A stretch of DNA of 64,000 nucleotides, taken from the sequence record KJ190157; one strand, given 5' to 3'. Position 1 is the stretch's first letter, and the number at the start of each line of letters is the position of its first letter. Positions 3,322 to 20,677 of the stretch are shown piece after piece. Source of the DNA: Escherichia phage vB_EcoS_FFH_1. Under the pieces are notes generated by a model. That model was not told the origin of the DNA and did no database searches. It saw nothing but the letters and a program-made list of their open reading frames with translations. The translations under genes were made by a program, and so were the position numbers.

Positions 3322-3510
3322 TTAGTCAATTACTTTTGAGGCTTCAAGGTAGTCGATATAGTGTATGTTTTCTACCGTAATCATATAATCTGCCACTTTA
3401 TCCATAGCTTGGGCTTCAGAGGTAGCTCTGGCTAACCTATATCCTTTTTTATATTCATCCGGGTATTCTCTATCTTGGATAAACACAACATAAACTATAT
3501 ATAGATCCAT
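3322..3510 (-). CDS. Hypothetical protein (62 aa)
   Basis: ORF. Confidence 0.4.
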   Translation of the reverse strand: MDLYIVYVVFIQDREYPDEYKKGYRLARATSEAQAMDKVADYMITVENIHYIDYLEASKVID

Positions 3511-3529
3511 TTGTGACCTCTATTTAATT

Positions 3530-3607
3530 TGGTGGCTCCCCGAGGATTCGAACCTACGTACCTTCCGGTTATGAGCCGGGTGCTCATACCATATGAGCTT
3601 GAGAACC
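3530..3607 (-). tRNA. tRNA with anticodon CAT (Met, fMet or Ile2 type); weak T-stem
   Basis: Anticodon loop CTCATAA, D-arm GCTC...GAGC, acceptor GGTTCTC/GGGAGCC with G-U pairs, CCA encoded. Confidence 0.55.
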
Positions 3608-3613
3608 AGAATT

Positions 3614-3702
3614 TGGCGGAAGAAGCGGGAATCGAACCCACAAGGCTATATTTCAAACCGACAGATTAGCAATCTGCTGCAATACCGTTATGCTATTCTT
3701 CC
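3614..3702 (-). tRNA. tRNA-Ser (anticodon GCT), long variable arm, CCA encoded
   Basis: Perfect acceptor GGAAGAA/TTCTTCC, anticodon loop TTGCTAA, T-arm GTGGG-TTCGATT-CCCGC; 89 nt. Confidence 0.75.
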
Positions 3703-13243: not shown

Positions 13244-13720
13244 TCACATCTCGGCAAGTTCTTGCTCAGTAATAACTGTGTTACACAATGCATCTACAGC
13301 TTCATTACCACTAATACCAGAATGTCCTTTAACCTTAATAAAGGTAGGATTAGTATTATGAAAGTTGATATACTGCTGTGTTAATTTAAATGCTTCCTGC
13401 CAAAGTTCTAGATTAAGAGGAACTTCACCATCTGCTTTCTTCCAGCCTTTCCTTTGCCAAGAAAACATCCAACTTTCCATACCATTTTTGCAATAAGCAG
13501 AGTCAGTATAGATAGCAATTGGTCTATTATCTTTTTTAACAGACCAACGTAGAGCTTCTACAATAGCTGTGAGTTCCATCTCATTATTTGTAGTTTTAGG
13601 ATTATAACCAGATTTAGAACCTAAACGATCGTCGTTATCATCATAGACAATAAAACCCCAAGCACCTGGACCTGGGTTAGACTTACAAGCACCATCTGTG
13701 TAAATGTGGAAAACCGACAT
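13244..13720 (-). CDS. rnhA: Ribonuclease H (RNase HI family)
   Basis: YTDGAC, NNEMEL, YTDS, KGHSG motifs; start at the ATG overlapping the upstream stop (TAATG) with RBS GGAGG. Confidence 0.85.
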   Translation of the reverse strand: MSVFHIYTDGACKSNPGPGAWGFIVYDDNDDRLGSKSGYNPKTTNNEMELTAIVEALRWSVKKDNRPIAIYTDSAYCKNGMESWMFSWQRKGWKKADGEVPLNLELWQEAFKLTQQYINFHNTNPTFIKVKGHSGISGNEAVDALCNTVITEQELAEM

Positions 13721-14001
13721 TATACCTCCCAACTAATTTTAAGACCCATGTCTACAAAGGCGGCTTCTCGGTAGTATTGTGAGAGATGATACCCCTTATC
13801 CGATAAGGTTTTTAGTACCGATTTAGCTGCTCCTGGCATTTCTCTAGGATTATATAGCCACCTAGCGTAAGGATTATCTCGAATAATTACTTCTGTATTT
13901 CCAGACTTAGCAGCTTCTACAATCTTTTCTTCTATAAACTTTAGAAATGCGGGTACTTCTGTTAATCCTGCAAGTTCTTGGGCTTCTTTGGCTGAAATCA
14001 T
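13720..14001 (-). CDS. Hypothetical protein (93 aa)
   Basis: ORF. Confidence 0.45.
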   Translation of the reverse strand: MISAKEAQELAGLTEVPAFLKFIEEKIVEAAKSGNTEVIIRDNPYARWLYNPREMPGAAKSVLKTLSDKGYHLSQYYREAAFVDMGLKISWEV

Positions 14002-14026
14002 TGTATACCTCCAATTTATAAAATAT

Positions 14027-14055
14027 ATTATATTTAAATTTCACTAAATAAGCAA
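14027..14055 (-). promoter_or_regulatory. Conserved early promoter
   Basis: Minus strand TTGCTT-17-TATAAT. Confidence 0.55.
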
Positions 14056-14096
14056 ATGAAATTTAAATATAATAGCCCCCGAAAGGGCTATTTGAG

Positions 14097-14936
14097 TTAA
14101 GAAGACATCTTAGCTTTAAGAGCTGGGTGAGGATCGTACCCCTCTAAATGGAATGACCAAGCTGCCGTATTATTTTCTAGTAAGTCGTAAAGATCTACAA
14201 ACTCTGGCATTACTAGAGTTGGTAAAGGACGAGGTTTACGTTTTACCTGTTCTTCTACCTGTTCCATGTGGTCATTATAGATATGAGTATCACCGCCACT
14301 AAAGATAAGATAACGAGGTTTTAATCCTGTCAGTTTTGCTAATATATGCGTTAATAAAGCATAACTAGCAATATTGAAAGGTAAACCGAGGAAACAATCC
14401 ACAGAGCGTTGTGTCCATTTAAGATCTAGGTATCCATCGTTACTTACATAGCACTGGAAGCCGTAGTGACAGGGTGGTAATGCCATTTTATCAAGTTCAG
14501 CTACGTTCCATGCAGAAACTAGATGTCTGCGGCCATGAGGATTATTCTTGAGTCCTTCAATAAGTTCTAGAATCTGATCTCGCCCACCAAAGTTGCGCCA
14601 CTGTTTACCATATACTGGTCCTAGATTACCCTTATCATACCCCATACTTATAGCTTGGTCTTCATAATTTGGAGTCCAGATGGTCCACTGTCCTTCGTCA
14701 CGACCAAATGTGAATACACGTAGATCATGGAGATTTGTGGAACCAGACAAGAACCATAAGAGTTCTCCTACTACGGATTTCCAAGCTAGACGTTTGGTAG
14801 TTACAGCCGGGAACCCTTCACGTAGGTCGAACTTAGCATAGGAATCAAAAATTGAAACTGTGCCTGTTCCTGTACGGTCATTACGGGGTTCACCTAGTAA
14901 AATTACATCTGTCAAAATTTTTAAGTATTGTTGCAT
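14097..14936 (-). CDS. thyA: Thymidylate synthase
   Basis: Active-site PPCH motif and overall ThyA-like sequence. Confidence 0.9.
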   Translation of the reverse strand: MQQYLKILTDVILLGEPRNDRTGTGTVSIFDSYAKFDLREGFPAVTTKRLAWKSVVGELLWFLSGSTNLHDLRVFTFGRDEGQWTIWTPNYEDQAISMGYDKGNLGPVYGKQWRNFGGRDQILELIEGLKNNPHGRRHLVSAWNVAELDKMALPPCHYGFQCYVSNDGYLDLKWTQRSVDCFLGLPFNIASYALLTHILAKLTGLKPRYLIFSGGDTHIYNDHMEQVEEQVKRKPRPLPTLVMPEFVDLYDLLENNTAAWSFHLEGYDPHPALKAKMSS

Positions 14937-15469
14937 TAATAAGTAACCAATTCCTGTACAAATCGCAGGCTGTTATCACTGTTTGCGCCAACTGCATAGA
15001 CTAATCGAGTGGATTCATAGTTATAATCCAGTATCATACTATCTAGGTGTATATCTGCCTCTAGCTTCTGTTCGCTAAAGATTGTAGATACAAAAGCACT
15101 TTCAATATGCCCATGTTGGTACATTTCTAGAAGAAGATTAGCTCCACCTAGAACTACTGTTTGCTGATCTTTTAGAAAAGTAGGTAATGTATCACCTATC
15201 ATTGATATGGGAGTGTAAATATCATGTGTAATATCATCTGGCAGTGGACGATCAGCACGAATAAATAGGTCAGAAGCTCCAATCATACGTTCCCTAACGG
15301 CGTATGGAAGAGCTAAATAAGTACCAGCACCAATGATGATGTTATCTGGATTCAACACGTCCAGTTGAGAATAGAAAGCATTCAGTTCTTCTTTGAAAGA
15401 GCCCCAAGGGAGCTTACCTCGGAGGCCGAACTCCCCATTCGGCCCAACTGCGTACATTGCTGTAATCAT
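14936..15469 (-). CDS. Dihydrofolate reductase
   Basis: DHFR-like 177 aa protein directly upstream of thyA, overlapping both neighbours. Confidence 0.8.
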   Translation of the reverse strand: MITAMYAVGPNGEFGLRGKLPWGSFKEELNAFYSQLDVLNPDNIIIGAGTYLALPYAVRERMIGASDLFIRADRPLPDDITHDIYTPISMIGDTLPTFLKDQQTVVLGGANLLLEMYQHGHIESAFVSTIFSEQKLEADIHLDSMILDYNYESTRLVYAVGANSDNSLRFVQELVTY

Positions 15470-16611
15470 AAGAAATCTCCAAATTCATTACCCAGATCTT
15501 TCAGAGTATCAGTAGAGGTCTCAGTTACCTGACCTACACGGTAGGCTGCACCAATCTGGATTTCTTGTGGAGCAGGCTGTAGAGAAGTAGTATCCAACCA
15601 GTTCATAATCCACGGAATAGGGTTTTTAGTGATTACTGGTAAGTGACTAGGCCATTCTACACCAATGTGCATAAATGCATTACGCCCTACAAAGTACAAG
15701 TATTCTTCTAGAAGTTCTGCATTCAAACCAATCAGACTACGACCTTTGAAAATGAAATGACCCCATTCAATTTCAGTTTTCAGAGTTTTCAGGAGCTGTG
15801 CTGGTGCTTTAGCCACTGCTTCGTCTACCAGATCTTTGTCAAACTGCTGGAACATAATCTGGATGATTGCTTTGGACATCTGAGTGTGCAGAGCTTCATC
15901 TTTAGCGATTAATTGCAGATTTTTAGCAATACCTTGCAGAATATCGTTCTCTGCTAATGCAAAGGTACATGCAAAGGATGCGTAGAACTGCATTGCTTCC
16001 AGACCGTAGATTGCAAAATAAGCATCTAACAGTTTAGCCTGAGTTTCACGCTTAACTTCAGGGAACTCCGTTTCTGGGTATGTATTGTCACCACGATGAT
16101 CACGTACTGCGATGAAATACTGACCTAACTGGTACAGTTCATCGAATAGTTCAACAGAATCAGCGATGCGTGCGAATGCTTCTTGGTTTTTGGTTACAGA
16201 ATCAATAAATTCTGCTGGATCAGTTAGCACATTACGAATAATATTGCTATAAGCACGACTGTGCAGATCTTCGAAGTAGCTCCACTGCTTGAGCATACCT
16301 TCCAATTCTGGACGACTTACAAGCGGCATAATAGCTGCTTCAGGAGCACGACTGATGAAGGAATCTGTTTGAGTCTGCCATGCTAAGTTCAGGAGTGTAA
16401 TTTCCTGAATTTCTCGTGGGAGATTAGGCCATTGTTTCTTATCTGCTTCCAGACTGATTTCAGTTTCAGTCCAAAATTGAGAGCGTTGCAGAAGTGCCAG
16501 ACGTTCTAGTTCTGGATGTGCTACACGTACATAATCTGCGATACCTAGAGAATCTCCCAGGAAAAGGTCAGCGTTAGTATGATCCCAATTCAGGTTTAGT
16601 AAAGTAGTCAT
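15466..16611 (-). CDS. nrdB: Ribonucleotide reductase class Ia beta subunit
   Basis: Ferritin-like di-iron protein of NrdB size and pattern; RBS AGAGGAAAA. Confidence 0.9.
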   Translation of the reverse strand: MTTLLNLNWDHTNADLFLGDSLGIADYVRVAHPELERLALLQRSQFWTETEISLEADKKQWPNLPREIQEITLLNLAWQTQTDSFISRAPEAAIMPLVSRPELEGMLKQWSYFEDLHSRAYSNIIRNVLTDPAEFIDSVTKNQEAFARIADSVELFDELYQLGQYFIAVRDHRGDNTYPETEFPEVKRETQAKLLDAYFAIYGLEAMQFYASFACTFALAENDILQGIAKNLQLIAKDEALHTQMSKAIIQIMFQQFDKDLVDEAVAKAPAQLLKTLKTEIEWGHFIFKGRSLIGLNAELLEEYLYFVGRNAFMHIGVEWPSHLPVITKNPIPWIMNWLDTTSLQPAPQEIQIGAAYRVGQVTETSTDTLKDLGNEFGDFL

Positions 16612-16641: not shown

Positions 16642-16670
16642 TATTATAGCAAATCTGGTAGCGATTAGCA
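16642..16670 (-). promoter_or_regulatory. Conserved early promoter upstream of nrdB
   Basis: Minus strand TTGCTA-17-TATAAT. Confidence 0.6.
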
Positions 16671-16677
16671 AATAAAA

Positions 16678-17160
16678 TTATAAACTATCAAGCTCCAATA
16701 GTTTAGCATCGCGCCATTCTATAGCATCCTCTAATTCTTTGAATGTTTTAGTATGTTTTACACCTTTTCTAGCAATCTGGACTTGGTAAGATCCGCTTGC
16801 TTTTTGGTGTATATTTTTAATACCTAACTTATTGTCTTTGTGCGCTCCGACATTCTTTCCATTGTTAAATCTATCAGATGCTAATAAATTAATTGCTCTA
16901 TTATCATGACGTATTCTGTTGTCATGGTCTACTTCTTTTGGAATGTATCCATGGGTGATATAGAATGCTAAGATATGTGCATAGTATTTTTTACCCCTTA
17001 CTTGCATTACTATGTATCCTGAACATTTTTCTAGAGAACCTGCTTCTTTGTCAGCAAACTTAGTATTAAAGGATTTATCTTCTCTAGGTCTGTGGGTAAA
17101 GATTCCGGTTTCTGGATTATAGTCAAATAACTCAGCTATTTCTTTGTATTTTTCTTCCAT
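16678..17160 (-). CDS. HNH homing endonuclease with a C-terminal AP2-like DNA-binding domain
   Basis: HNH motif EVDHDNRIRHDNRAINL; free-standing between nrdA and nrdB; weak RBS and no promoter of its own. Confidence 0.8.
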   Translation of the reverse strand: MEEKYKEIAELFDYNPETGIFTHRPREDKSFNTKFADKEAGSLEKCSGYIVMQVRGKKYYAHILAFYITHGYIPKEVDHDNRIRHDNRAINLLASDRFNNGKNVGAHKDNKLGIKNIHQKASGSYQVQIARKGVKHTKTFKELEDAIEWRDAKLLELDSL

Positions 17161-17191
17161 AATCTAAAATTACAGCCGTTATAGGCCTAAT

Positions 17192-17216
17192 AAAAGGGGC
17201 TTTCGCCCCCTTATTT
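17192..17216 (-). terminator. Conserved GGGGC-TTTC-GCCCC hairpin acting as terminator downstream of nrdA
   Basis: aaaaggggctttcgccccc on plus; a U-run follows the hairpin on the minus transcript. Confidence 0.55.
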
Positions 17217-17217
17217 A

Positions 17218-19551
17218 TTATAATTGGCAACCACCTGATGCGCATCCAGCAGCAGCTTCCTCTCCTGCACCTCCACCGTTTGCGGTGTTGAAGTTAGCAT
17301 AATAGAAAGTTTTCCACCCGTACTTAACAGCAGTCATGAAATCACGAACTACTACTGGGCCAGGAATAATTTCATTCTCAAACTTGGTGTAGTCGTAGTA
17401 CATATTAGTACTGATAGACTGGCTGAAGAATTTCTGCATAGTTGCTACCCATTTGATCCACTCGATACGATCTACATCATAAGCCAATTTATAGCTCATT
17501 AACGTTTCCCAATCGGTTGCACCTGGAGCAATTGCAATTACTTTATTTACTGCACTACCCTTGATAGATACAATCTTACGTGGTGGTTCGATAGAGTTAG
17601 TAACACCTAACAGAACAGAAGAACTTTCTCCCGGCATCTGAGCAGTCAGAACAGAGTTACGCATACCATATTTCAGAATATCTGCACGTAGAGACTCCCA
17701 ATCCATTTCTAGACCTATGGATACCAGTTCATCAACAGTTTTCTTGTACGTGTCGATTACCAAAATTCCCTTAGATGGTTTAGTACGATCAAACCACTCA
17801 CATGCACCCTGTTCTTTAGCTAGGCGTACAGAGGCTTTATGCAGGAAGTAAGACAGTTTTTCAGCCTCACGGTGAATCCAGTTACGTGCTTCAATACCTT
17901 CATAAGCCAGACCTTCTGCGGCCATTGCACCTGCTGCGTTCATTAGGCCAATACCAACATTACGACGTTTCTTAGCCGTATATTCCATAGTTGGGAACGG
18001 ATAATCCTGAATTTCGATAATTGTATCAATGAATTTCAGAAGGATGTAGCAAGTTTTTTCCCACTCAGCCAGAGATTCCATGCGTCCAAGTACAACACCA
18101 CCTAAGTTACACAGAGATACTTCACCAATATCCTCCGGCTTCATTTGATCAAGCTGCTCTTTTGTCTTATACAGCTCTGTGATATGATGGAACGGGCGTG
18201 TAGGCTGAGTAATCTCAACACAAAGGTTTGTCATACGGATCGGATCAAGGAAATTACCATGACGATTAGACTCCCCAATGTGATGAGCATACATACGTCC
18301 TGTTTCCATTCGGATACGTAGCCAAGTATCTAGGATTTCTTTTGCAGAGACTTTAGGAGCTGCTGGAACTGTTTTTCCTTTGTGGTCGATCTTTGTAAGA
18401 GATGCCACACGTTTCTCCGCTGCCACATAGATTTCTTCAAATTTAGCCTCGTCATCACTATAAAACGCTTCATGAACTTCTGGAGCATAGAAGTATGACA
18501 TTAGCGTAATATCTTCATTTTTCAGATAACGTTTTAACAAAAGATTGTTGAAGCTCAGAGAATAATCCATCTTATCGATTTTATTCTCATCTGTAGCACG
18601 TTGTTGCTTAACCTGCATCAATTGAATGATTTCAGGGTCAAAGTATGGATAAGACACTGTAGCAGAACCACCACGAGTTTGCTGAGTATTGGCCTTTACT
18701 GAGCGGTCAATGTGTCGATAATATGGCAGTTTTCCGGAATGCGGGAATGCCCCATTTCGCACCGGATCAGCAATTGATCTGCTCTCAAGATGATACCCGA
18801 TTCCCGCTCTGGCTGCGACCATTTTGAAGACGATGTGCTCGGCGGTGTCGATTGAATCCAACGTGTCAGTGGAATCCACGAGGCAGCAACTAGCAAATCC
18901 ACGGTCACTAGAGCGCAGACCAACCAGTGGCGGCGTAGGAACGTTGATTTTGTGGAGCGACATTGCGTTGTAGAGGTCGATTGCATCTAGAATTGTCCAG
19001 TTAGGTTGAGATAACATCGCCATTGCCATACCCATGTAGGCAAACTGCGGGGTTTCATAAATTTCACCAGTGGCTATGTTACGACGGGAATACTTATCAA
19101 AGAACTGCTTCAGCCCACCACTAGTAAAAAGACGGTCACGATCATGGTCGATAACCTGATTCAGAGCTTCAAATTGCTCATCGGTAATCCATGCACTCAT
19201 GTCTTCCCATGCACCTACGCTAACCATGTGGTCATGGAAGAAACGTAGAGAAGGTGGTTCGAAGGAGTCATAAAGGCGCTTACGCATTTGCGCAAGACGT
19301 AATTCCTTTGCTGGCACATCGTATGCTGGGTTATCTTTGATAAGACTTTCAGCAGCTTTAATTAATGCGTCCATCAGAGTGTCGGAATCTACAACCCCTT
19401 TAGGTAGAGTTTTTTGAGCAGCCATAGTAATGGCTGACCAACTTACATCAACTGTTTTGCAACCATACTCTGCCCAACCATTGAGTTTTTCAGGAGCAAA
19501 GTCTTCTACAGTACCGTCACGTTTAATTACTTTTTCAATGCGATGGCTCAT
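17218..19551 (-). CDS. nrdA: Ribonucleotide reductase class Ia alpha subunit
   Basis: Clear colinear similarity to E. coli NrdA as recalled (ATP-cone start, C-terminal cysteine pair); start set at MSHRIEKVIKRDG with RBS AAGGAAAG. Confidence 0.9.
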   Translation of the reverse strand: MSHRIEKVIKRDGTVEDFAPEKLNGWAEYGCKTVDVSWSAITMAAQKTLPKGVVDSDTLMDALIKAAESLIKDNPAYDVPAKELRLAQMRKRLYDSFEPPSLRFFHDHMVSVGAWEDMSAWITDEQFEALNQVIDHDRDRLFTSGGLKQFFDKYSRRNIATGEIYETPQFAYMGMAMAMLSQPNWTILDAIDLYNAMSLHKINVPTPPLVGLRSSDRGFASCCLVDSTDTLDSIDTAEHIVFKMVAARAGIGYHLESRSIADPVRNGAFPHSGKLPYYRHIDRSVKANTQQTRGGSATVSYPYFDPEIIQLMQVKQQRATDENKIDKMDYSLSFNNLLLKRYLKNEDITLMSYFYAPEVHEAFYSDDEAKFEEIYVAAEKRVASLTKIDHKGKTVPAAPKVSAKEILDTWLRIRMETGRMYAHHIGESNRHGNFLDPIRMTNLCVEITQPTRPFHHITELYKTKEQLDQMKPEDIGEVSLCNLGGVVLGRMESLAEWEKTCYILLKFIDTIIEIQDYPFPTMEYTAKKRRNVGIGLMNAAGAMAAEGLAYEGIEARNWIHREAEKLSYFLHKASVRLAKEQGACEWFDRTKPSKGILVIDTYKKTVDELVSIGLEMDWESLRADILKYGMRNSVLTAQMPGESSSVLLGVTNSIEPPRKIVSIKGSAVNKVIAIAPGATDWETLMSYKLAYDVDRIEWIKWVATMQKFFSQSISTNMYYDYTKFENEIIPGPVVVRDFMTAVKYGWKTFYYANFNTANGGGAGEEAAAGCASGGCQL

Positions 19552-19589
19552 TTGGCTTTCCTTTTTATAGTTATCAGGATTTAAGGAAT

Positions 19590-19618
19590 ATTCTACTTTA
19601 TTATCGGTCATTAGGCAA
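19590..19618 (-). promoter_or_regulatory. Early promoter upstream of nrdA (TTGCCT-17-TAGAAT)
   Basis: Plus attcta 19590-19595 and aggcaa 19613-19618. Confidence 0.5.
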
Positions 19619-19692
19619 ATAAAATTTTCTGATAGAAAAGGCCCGAGTATTTTCATACCCAGGCCTGTATATTACCAGTCTAGCTTTTTAGC

Positions 19693-19915: not shown

Positions 19916-20677
19916 TTACACCTTCCCCATGTCTTTAAAAATGTCATAGAATGCTTTAGACTCAACAGAACGAACGTTATCAATCAATTCGATCATTGAG
20001 AAGGGGGCATTTTCGTATTTCTCATAGACTTCCATAAGGAGTGCTAGACCTGAGTCACCTTTAATGTCTTTCTGAGCTATATCTCCGCAGATAATTAAAC
20101 GGCAGTCTTGTCCTACACGGGTTAGGAGACAAATCATTGCCTCAACGGAAATATTCTGAGCTTCATCGACAATTACATAGGAGTTGTTGAAAGTTCTGCC
20201 ACGAGCATGTTCGATAGCCAAAAATTTAATTTTCTGACGTTCGACATATCCTTTATATGCATGATCGCCGATGGCCCATTTCATACCATCAGCTATTGGC
20301 TCCAACCAAGGCTCTAGCTTTTCCGCTAGATCACCAGGAAGCATACCAAGAGACTTACCTAGAGGTTCATTAGGACGTACGAGAATCACTTGCTCAATAT
20401 CTGAGTGAATGTCTACTAGTTCCTGAGCTGCAAGAACGGACGGAATAAAGGTTTTACCAGTACCTGGCTCACCGATACCCACAGTCACTGTGTTGTTCTT
20501 GATCATATTGATATATGATTTTTGCTCGCGGTTTTTACCTACTAGGGATTTAGCAACTGGGTTAGCGTAATCATTAGAAAAATCAGCCTGAATTACGTTA
20601 TTCTCATATTTGTTGCCACGCTTTCTTGAACCATTGCGGTTCTCTCTTTTTTGACGTGCTTTTCCCATAAATAACAC
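19916..20677 (-). CDS. phoH: PhoH-like ATPase
   Basis: Walker A GEPGTGKTF and PhoH-like layout; RBS AGGAG. Confidence 0.85.
   Translation of the reverse strand: MLFMGKARQKRENRNGSRKRGNKYENNVIQADFSNDYANPVAKSLVGKNREQKSYINMIKNNTVTVGIGEPGTGKTFIPSVLAAQELVDIHSDIEQVILVRPNEPLGKSLGMLPGDLAEKLEPWLEPIADGMKWAIGDHAYKGYVERQKIKFLAIEHARGRTFNNSYVIVDEAQNISVEAMICLLTRVGQDCRLIICGDIAQKDIKGDSGLALLMEVYEKYENAPFSMIELIDNVRSVESKAFYDIFKDMGKV

Follow-up and report, generated by a model that had tools for sequence, protein, structure and literature searches.

Introduction

Homing endonuclease genes are the main source of local differences among the genomes of T5-like phages (PMC10644984). HNH_3 proteins that carry AP2 domains are a known homing endonuclease architecture (PMC5714182), and HNH-AP2 endonucleases of phages and bacteria are attributed to Magnani et al. 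(2004) and Wessler (2005), as cited in PMC5714182. [quoted passage not shown] HNH genes located between nrdA and nrdB have been found in T5-like phages and compared with mobE (Niu et al., 2012; PMC3326045). Phage T4 likewise has a gene, mobE, between nrdA and nrdB; this gene lacks a promoter and needs transcription from upstream, and its transcript is limited by a terminator that is present in all mobE carriers and only there (PMC2790892). The MobE enzyme appears to nick (PMC2790892), acting on nrdB at nt 122-126 and causing co-conversion of the flanks (PMC2790892).

Here we examine a gene of this kind in a 64-kb stretch of DNA from Escherichia phage vB_EcoS_FFH_1 (hereafter, the window). With a probability of about 0.8, we consider it a free-standing homing endonuclease gene of the I-HmuI-like HNH_3 group, encoding a protein with an AP2-fold domain and residing in a cassette of about 536 nt between nrdA and nrdB. 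The two-domain architecture of the HNH-AP2 endonucleases is shared by the window protein. [quoted passage not shown] I-HmuI of Bacillus phage SPO1 (PDB 1u3e) is encoded in an intron and binds DNA with a different C-terminal part, while the window protein is free-standing, ends in an AP2 domain and is only about 20% identical to I-HmuI. Products of T5 hegH / P-TflVIII and AKFV33 orf096 are likewise HNH_3 proteins, 165-174 aa long and encoded in the same 106-nt spacer as the window gene, but overall they are only 36-42% identical to the window protein. Their genes lie 3' of the nrdB promoter, have their own Shine-Dalgarno sequence and are tied to the nrdB 5' end, whereas the window gene is tied to the nrdA 3' end.

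T4 MobE is the closest functional analogue, with a likeness to the window gene that is functional and positional only. The MobE terminator is located inside the coding region, whereas that of the window gene lies upstream. No sequence relationship between the window protein and MobE was detectable (hhalign probability 0.1%), and MobE matches Pfam HNH PF01844 instead of HNH_3 PF13392, with no AP2 match found. Membership in the MobE family was rejected on the basis of the hhalign result and the different Pfam family. Since MobE is unrelated in sequence, the resemblance is considered convergent.

Results and discussion

A free-standing gene in the nrd region

The endonuclease gene occupies positions 16678..17160 on the minus strand and is given in the ORF list as a frame of 160 aa with an ATG start, stop codon included. 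Its upstream flank is nrdA (17218..19656, minus), an 812-aa ORF for the large subunit of class Ia ribonucleotide reductase (RNR; Pfam large-chain barrel, E=1.6e-119). The downstream flank is nrdB (15466..16611, minus), a 381-aa ORF for the small subunit (Pfam Ribonuc_red_sm, E=3.8e-36). An exact ORF and RNR domains on both neighbors confirm the position between nrdA and nrdB that the first-pass annotation had proposed. Its placement in a T5-like genome is equally borne out, as the 4.3-kb nrd region of FFH_1 shares 97% identity with several T5-like members of the Demerecviridae. Each of the two nrd ORFs is intact, and the gene is intergenic, with the nrdA stop on one side and the nrdB promoter on the other. 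It is thus free-standing, outside any intron or intein.

The block around the gene is dedicated to nucleotide metabolism (13244-15469 and 19916-20677, minus). Its order is an RNase H-like ORF, thymidylate synthase, dihydrofolate reductase, nrdB, the endonuclease gene, nrdA and a PhoH-like gene, with names taken from the translations and from the annotation of relatives. No paralog of the endonuclease family was found in the 64-kb window, either by tblastn or with a family HMM run against the 340 stop-to-stop frames of at least 50 codons.

The 'H-N-H endonuclease' annotated in FFH_1 has the same amino-acid sequence as the window protein (100% identity). The gene is therefore already annotated in public records, and the finding is an ordinary one, already known in kind. 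Other labels are 'F-TflVI' in EPS7, which is an annotation transfer by similarity, and 'homing endonuclease' in many other records. Prior annotation and publication in T5-like phages (PMC3326045) go beyond what the first-pass annotation contained, as do the cassette terminator, the linked nrdA tail and the two-position hot spot described below.

Two observations concern the annotation of nrdA. The listed ORF start at 19656 falls within a terminator-like hairpin (19666..19639), and annotated N-termini are shorter in relatives; the true start is probably downstream of 19656, e.g., the ATG giving MTDNKVEY at about 19611. In the EPS7 record (CP000917; L001:3072-4301), the nrdA CDS is annotated as truncated (1230 nt), yet the DNA aligns along the full gene, and the short CDS is probably a sequencing or annotation fault of that record.

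Domain structure and catalytic residues

Pfam HNH_3 (PF13392) matches residues 59-95 of the protein with E=1.6e-8 and 34.5 bits against a cut-off of 24.8, and the whole protein falls in PHROG 99 'HNH endonuclease' (E=5.6e-49), so the HNH motif recognized on first inspection stands. This HNH_3 (His-Me finger) nuclease core is encoded at 16876..16986 (minus) and is associated with D78-H79, N91 and N100/N103. It is followed by a predicted AP2/ERF-fold DNA-binding domain at 16684..16845 (minus; residues ~106-159).

Relatives were collected by a word-indexed search, which returned 6 proteins, and by using the alignment of those as query, which returned 946, many with precomputed HNH_3 and AP2 assignments. 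An alignment of 88 sequences was made from these relatives, the window protein included. Pfam detected HNH_3 in 88/88 of the aligned sequences and AP2 in 63/88. For the window protein alone, Pfam AP2 (PF00847) gave no match at E<=1, and phmmer of the single sequence against the PDB gave only a chance match (E=0.69). The 88-sequence profile matched the solved AP2 domains of WRI1 (E=9.7e-10, profile positions 107-161) and TEM1 (E=1.8e-5), as well as the nicking homing endonuclease I-HmuI (E=6.1e-8, positions 40-118). The predicted AP2 domain of the window protein is too divergent for the Pfam model and is recognized only through the profile and the structure model; with the matches of its relatives and of the profile, the AP2-like C-terminal domain of the first-pass annotation is retained.

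The structure comparison gave I-HmuI (8.0; 4.3 Å; 97), the AP2 domain of TEM1 (6.1; 1.5 Å; 49) and the GCC-box domain of AtERF1 (5.7; 1.8 Å; 49), and the same three were the top Foldseek targets, with weak E-values. The nuclease part resembles a solved member of the HNH_3 / His-Me finger group, and the C-terminal part has the three-stranded antiparallel sheet packed against a C-terminal helix of the AP2/ERF fold. Across the 88 sequences, D78, H79, N91 and N103 are invariant and N100 is nearly so. In the profile alignment, D78-H79 correspond to D74-H75 of I-HmuI and N100 corresponds to N96. Work by Shen et al. from 2004 reportedly assigned catalytic roles to these I-HmuI residues. Taken together, the comparisons support the prediction of an HNH nuclease whose C-terminal domain has the AP2 fold.

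Selection on the gene

Differences between endonuclease orthologs are mostly synonymous, which indicates that the ORF is under strong purifying selection. Values of dN/dS range from 0.02 to 0.16: the window and EPS7 genes differ by 33 synonymous and 5 non-synonymous changes (dN/dS 0.03), and comparison with the divergent S124-type variant gives 0.13. Judged by this substitution pattern, the ORF is not a chance ORF. Between the window and EPS7, the gene is 92% identical at the nucleotide level (dS 0.47), and the flanking nrd genes are about 90-93% identical. We looked for a lower divergence of the gene than of its flanks as a mark of horizontal transfer and found none in this comparison. Because the divergence of the gene matches that of the flanks, recent horizontal spread and old presence with repeated loss are not separated by these data.

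Distribution among T5-like phages

The junction was searched with a query composed of 400 nt of nrdB, the spacer with the gene and 400 nt of nrdA. Matches were obtained in 533 phage records, with at least 80% of the query covered in 46 of them, whereas in most of the others the match spanned about 903 nt instead of 1406, i.e., the site was empty. The gene alone matched 46 records at a coverage of 95% or more, at one place per record or at two (SB6), and tblastn of the protein gave 46 records at 60% identity or more. Since 46 records have the gene and 46 cover at least 80% of the junction query, all copies are taken to lie at the nrdA-nrdB locus. Insertion is thus strictly site-specific, and the gene is present in about one relative in eleven (46/533 junction-bearing records). 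Carriers include Tequintavirus (NBEco001, SUT_E1520), Epseptimavirus (EPS7, SB6) and Yersinia phage phiR2-01, and both Tequintavirus-like and Epseptimavirus-like backgrounds include phages with the gene and phages without it.

The same polymorphism was seen in 26 independent junction loci from IMG/VR: the empty spacer of 106-107 nt was found in 15/26, the window-type gene or its 75-78% variant in 3/26, the T5 hegH/P-TflVIII type in 5/26, the AKFV33 type in 2/26 and a fourth HNH_3 type in 1/26. The flanks are near-identical with and without the cassette; at the empty locus L030, the first 500 nt of nrdB match the window at 100% identity, and in phage EC148 (ON185585), whose spacer is also empty, the flanks are ~96% identical. 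The variable presence suspected by the first-pass annotation is therefore observed, with every copy at the same site. A gene universal among relatives and lacking the catalytic histidine would have spoken against the first-pass reading; the gene is not universal, and H79 is invariant in the 88 relatives. Its reading as a mobile homing endonuclease is supported by these sequence data.

The distribution also bears on a different function. T5-like phages carry specific nicks (PMC10644984), and the window protein is related to the nicking enzyme I-HmuI, so it might be regarded as the enzyme behind the natural site-specific single-strand nicks of T5-type virion DNA. The gene is, however, missing from T5 itself and from about 91% of the junction-bearing T5-like records, whereas nicked genomes are a T5-like feature, reported for both T5 and BF23 (PMC10644984). 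Being contradicted by the gene distribution, this extremely improbable function was rejected.

One carrier has an unusual copy. Salmonella phage SB6 (MK809530; L003:2234-2560) shows a partial tandem duplication of about 300 nt that comprises the 5' part of the endonuclease gene. The second ORF is identical to the full copy over its first 90 residues and then runs out of frame. The duplication could be real or an assembly artefact.

Cassette anatomy and expression signals

The whole inserted cassette, consisting of a terminator, a spacer and the gene, covers 16678..17213 (minus; ~536 nt). It takes the place of about 36 nt of resident spacer that include the resident terminator, for a net gain of 500 nt, and the nrdA-nrdB intergenic region accordingly measures 606 nt in the window and 106 nt in empty-site phages. 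Homology to the empty sites returns at TTTTAYTTGCTAATCGC on the nrdB side, and on the other side it stops just past the nrdA stop. These boundaries were set by direct reading, as a MAFFT alignment of empty and occupied junctions misplaced the empty-site flank. In empty-site phages, the order is near-invariant: the nrdA stop, TAAAAACA, the terminator AGGAGATCTTCGGGTCTCCTTTTTCTTTGAAA, TTTTACTTGCTAATCGC...TATAAT of the nrdB promoter, AAGAGGAAAATCA and the nrdB ATG.

The cassette has an intrinsic terminator of its own at 17189..17212 (minus), located just 5' of the gene in the stretch that separates the nrdA stop from the endonuclease start. It reads AAGGGGGC-GAAA-GCCCCUU followed by UUAUU. At the corresponding place, empty-site phages have GGAGATCTTCGGGTCTCC-TTTTTCTTT. 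The hairpin scan gave the cassette terminator on the plus strand only, and folding of the minus-strand RNA confirmed the hairpin and the U-run. In the H8/S124 variant, which is 76% identical, the layout is the same but a third, unrelated terminator is present. The terminator is separated from the endonuclease ATG by a spacer of 28 nt, by direct reading (17161..17188, minus).

Within this spacer, the 16 nt 5' of the ATG (GCTGTAATTTTAGATT) contain no Shine-Dalgarno sequence, which agrees with the weak ribosome-binding site reported previously; nrdB, by contrast, has AAGAGGAAAATCA ahead of its ATG. A consensus scan also detected no promoter between the nrdA stop and the ATG, as had been stated for this gene. 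The promoter and terminator scans report consensus matches only. The nearest promoter is the resident one of nrdB at 16643..16671 (minus; TTGCTA-17-TATAAT, TG-extended, 10/12 consensus match), which belongs to the flank, outside the cassette, and whose -35 box directly abuts the endonuclease stop codon. It is identical in empty-site phages, and in AKFV33 and T5 the corresponding position carries the annotation of a T5-consensus promoter. The cassette terminator could silence the endonuclease gene almost fully.

An nrdA tail linked to the gene

At the 3' end of nrdA, the final ~60 nt (17218..17277, minus) form a haplotype that is tightly linked to the endonuclease gene, with an extra GCT codon and a protein end reading ...GCASGGCQL before the stop. 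Over the last 60 alignment columns of nrdA, identity to the window is 87-97% in the three other carriers and 66-77% in all 23 loci without the window allele or with a different or variant one. The 300 nt of nrdA before the tail are 93-98% identical in most loci, in carrier and non-carrier groups alike. EPS7, from another genus, is 96.5% identical in the tail versus only 89-93% over the remaining nrdA. On the nrdB side, the sequence is from the first base up to 100% identical to empty-site phages. The linkage is a population pattern and not the outcome of a cross; co-conversion leaves such tracts. The tail is presumed to be a co-conversion tract and/or an immunized target, and it suggests that the window enzyme acts on the nrdA 3' end or the resident terminator.

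A mixed tail was seen in L018, the IMG/VR copy of Salmonella phage SP3. Its site is empty, but its nrdA tail has the carrier-like extra GCT codon and GCTGCTGCTGG; it remains carrier-like until about 20 nt from the stop and then continues with the empty-site ending and the resident terminator. By its sequence, L018 may be a recombinant or a loss event.

The same data can be used to weigh whether the gene is an immobile remnant or domesticated passenger, which once homed but no longer moves, its patchiness reflecting vertical descent and repeated deletion. A gene that has diverged roughly in step with its flanks and sits behind a terminator without a ribosome-binding site would fit such a history, as would L018 if its partial tail records a loss. 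On the other hand, strong purifying selection and intact catalytic residues are unexpected in a dead element, the flanks are near-identical both with and without the cassette, and a sharp linked tract of 60 nt is typical of conversion. We regard an immobile gene as rather unlikely.

Proposed mechanism of homing

For an active homing endonuclease, we propose the following mechanism. With neither a promoter nor a Shine-Dalgarno sequence, the gene would be expressed at a low level from nrdA transcripts that read through the cassette terminator, and this read-through, together with inefficient initiation, would keep a potentially toxic nuclease scarce. [quoted passage not shown] I-HmuI nicks DNA, and as the window protein has a single HNH site, it is expected to nick one strand, a cut of both strands being less likely. 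The nick site would most probably lie in the last ~50 nt of nrdA or in the resident terminator. Recombinational repair would then copy the cassette and the adjacent nrdA tail into the recipient, giving the gene super-Mendelian inheritance, while the carrier genome would be protected because the target stretch is replaced or polymorphic in it.

Other endonucleases at the junction and a shared AP2 module

Three further HNH_3 lineages use a second position in this spacer, with the -10 box of the nrdB promoter on one side and the start of nrdB on the other. These are represented by T5 (L005), AKFV33 (L007) and IMGVR_UViG_2974569706 (L027), the last being the fourth type. All three keep the resident terminator and promoter, replace the nrdB leader, bring their own AAGGAG, and reach or overlap the start of nrdB. 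GenBank has 75 records with the T5 type (at least 80% identity) and, for the AKFV33 type, 29 records at 95% identity or more plus 7 at 60-80%. All four junction types are HNH_3 proteins, and by these comparisons the 106-nt spacer is a two-position hot spot for at least four HNH_3 lineages. Among the loci examined, no genome had both positions filled. In the T5, AKFV33 and fourth types, the first ~130-190 nt of nrdB are divergent, each type being tied to a haplotype of its own, which suggests that the second-position enzymes act on the nrdB 5' end.

The similarity between the junction types is unevenly distributed over the protein. Relative to the window protein, the AP2-like part (106-157) is 61% identical in the AKFV33 type and 45% in the T5 type, whereas the nuclease part (1-105) is 34% and 32% identical, respectively. 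For 85 other family members, the nuclease part has a mean identity of 38%, and the AP2-like part a mean of 21% with a maximum of 33%. Since the AP2-like parts are far closer than across the wider family, and the nuclease parts no closer than average, the junction endonucleases appear to have a predicted DNA-binding module in common. Possible reasons are that all of them target this locus or that alleles have swapped the 3' parts of their genes.

Such conservation could also fit an AP2-type DNA-binding regulator of the nrd operon, acting for instance at the nrdB promoter, in which nuclease activity has become secondary or has been lost. Among the junction endonucleases, no other part is as well conserved as the AP2 domain (61% and 45% versus a mean of 21% for unrelated family members), the endonuclease stop codon abuts the -35 box, and I-TevI offers a precedent of an endonuclease that also represses transcription (cited in PMC2790892). 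However, about nine in ten relatives express nrdB from the identical promoter without the window protein, and the nuclease residues are fully conserved, which makes a regulator very unlikely.

With a homing endonuclease as the preferred reading of the gene, the spacer might be seen as a two-position arena in which at least four HNH_3 lineages displace each other, the AP2 module being retained or exchanged because it addresses the locus and each enzyme cutting its own side. This extension is tentative, and we consider it possible but doubtful. If it is true, the window gene would cut the nrdA 3' end, and the T5, AKFV33 and fourth types the nrdB 5' end.

The finding of two positions and multiple alleles in one spacer adds modestly to the known picture. 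As a whole, the gene is of little importance beyond phage genomics. It is a marker of recombination history and a possible cause of biased marker inheritance near the nrd genes in mixtures of T5-like phages for therapy or biocontrol, and its product is a candidate site-specific nickase with an AP2 reader domain. The locus could serve as a compact natural system for studying homing endonuclease competition and module exchange, since it combines two positions for insertion with several alleles and is represented in hundreds of sequenced genomes. Such use would extend known biology and not represent a new kind.

A last observation concerns Salmonella phage SP01 (L032), which has a window-type gene, yet carries the nrdB 5' haplotype (~190 nt, locus 3501-3690) of the T5/AKFV33-type endonucleases, with the second insertion position empty. 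From its sequence, this combination looks like a trace of successive invasions or of recombination; under displacement between the two positions, the SP01 genome would bear the traces of two successive invasions.
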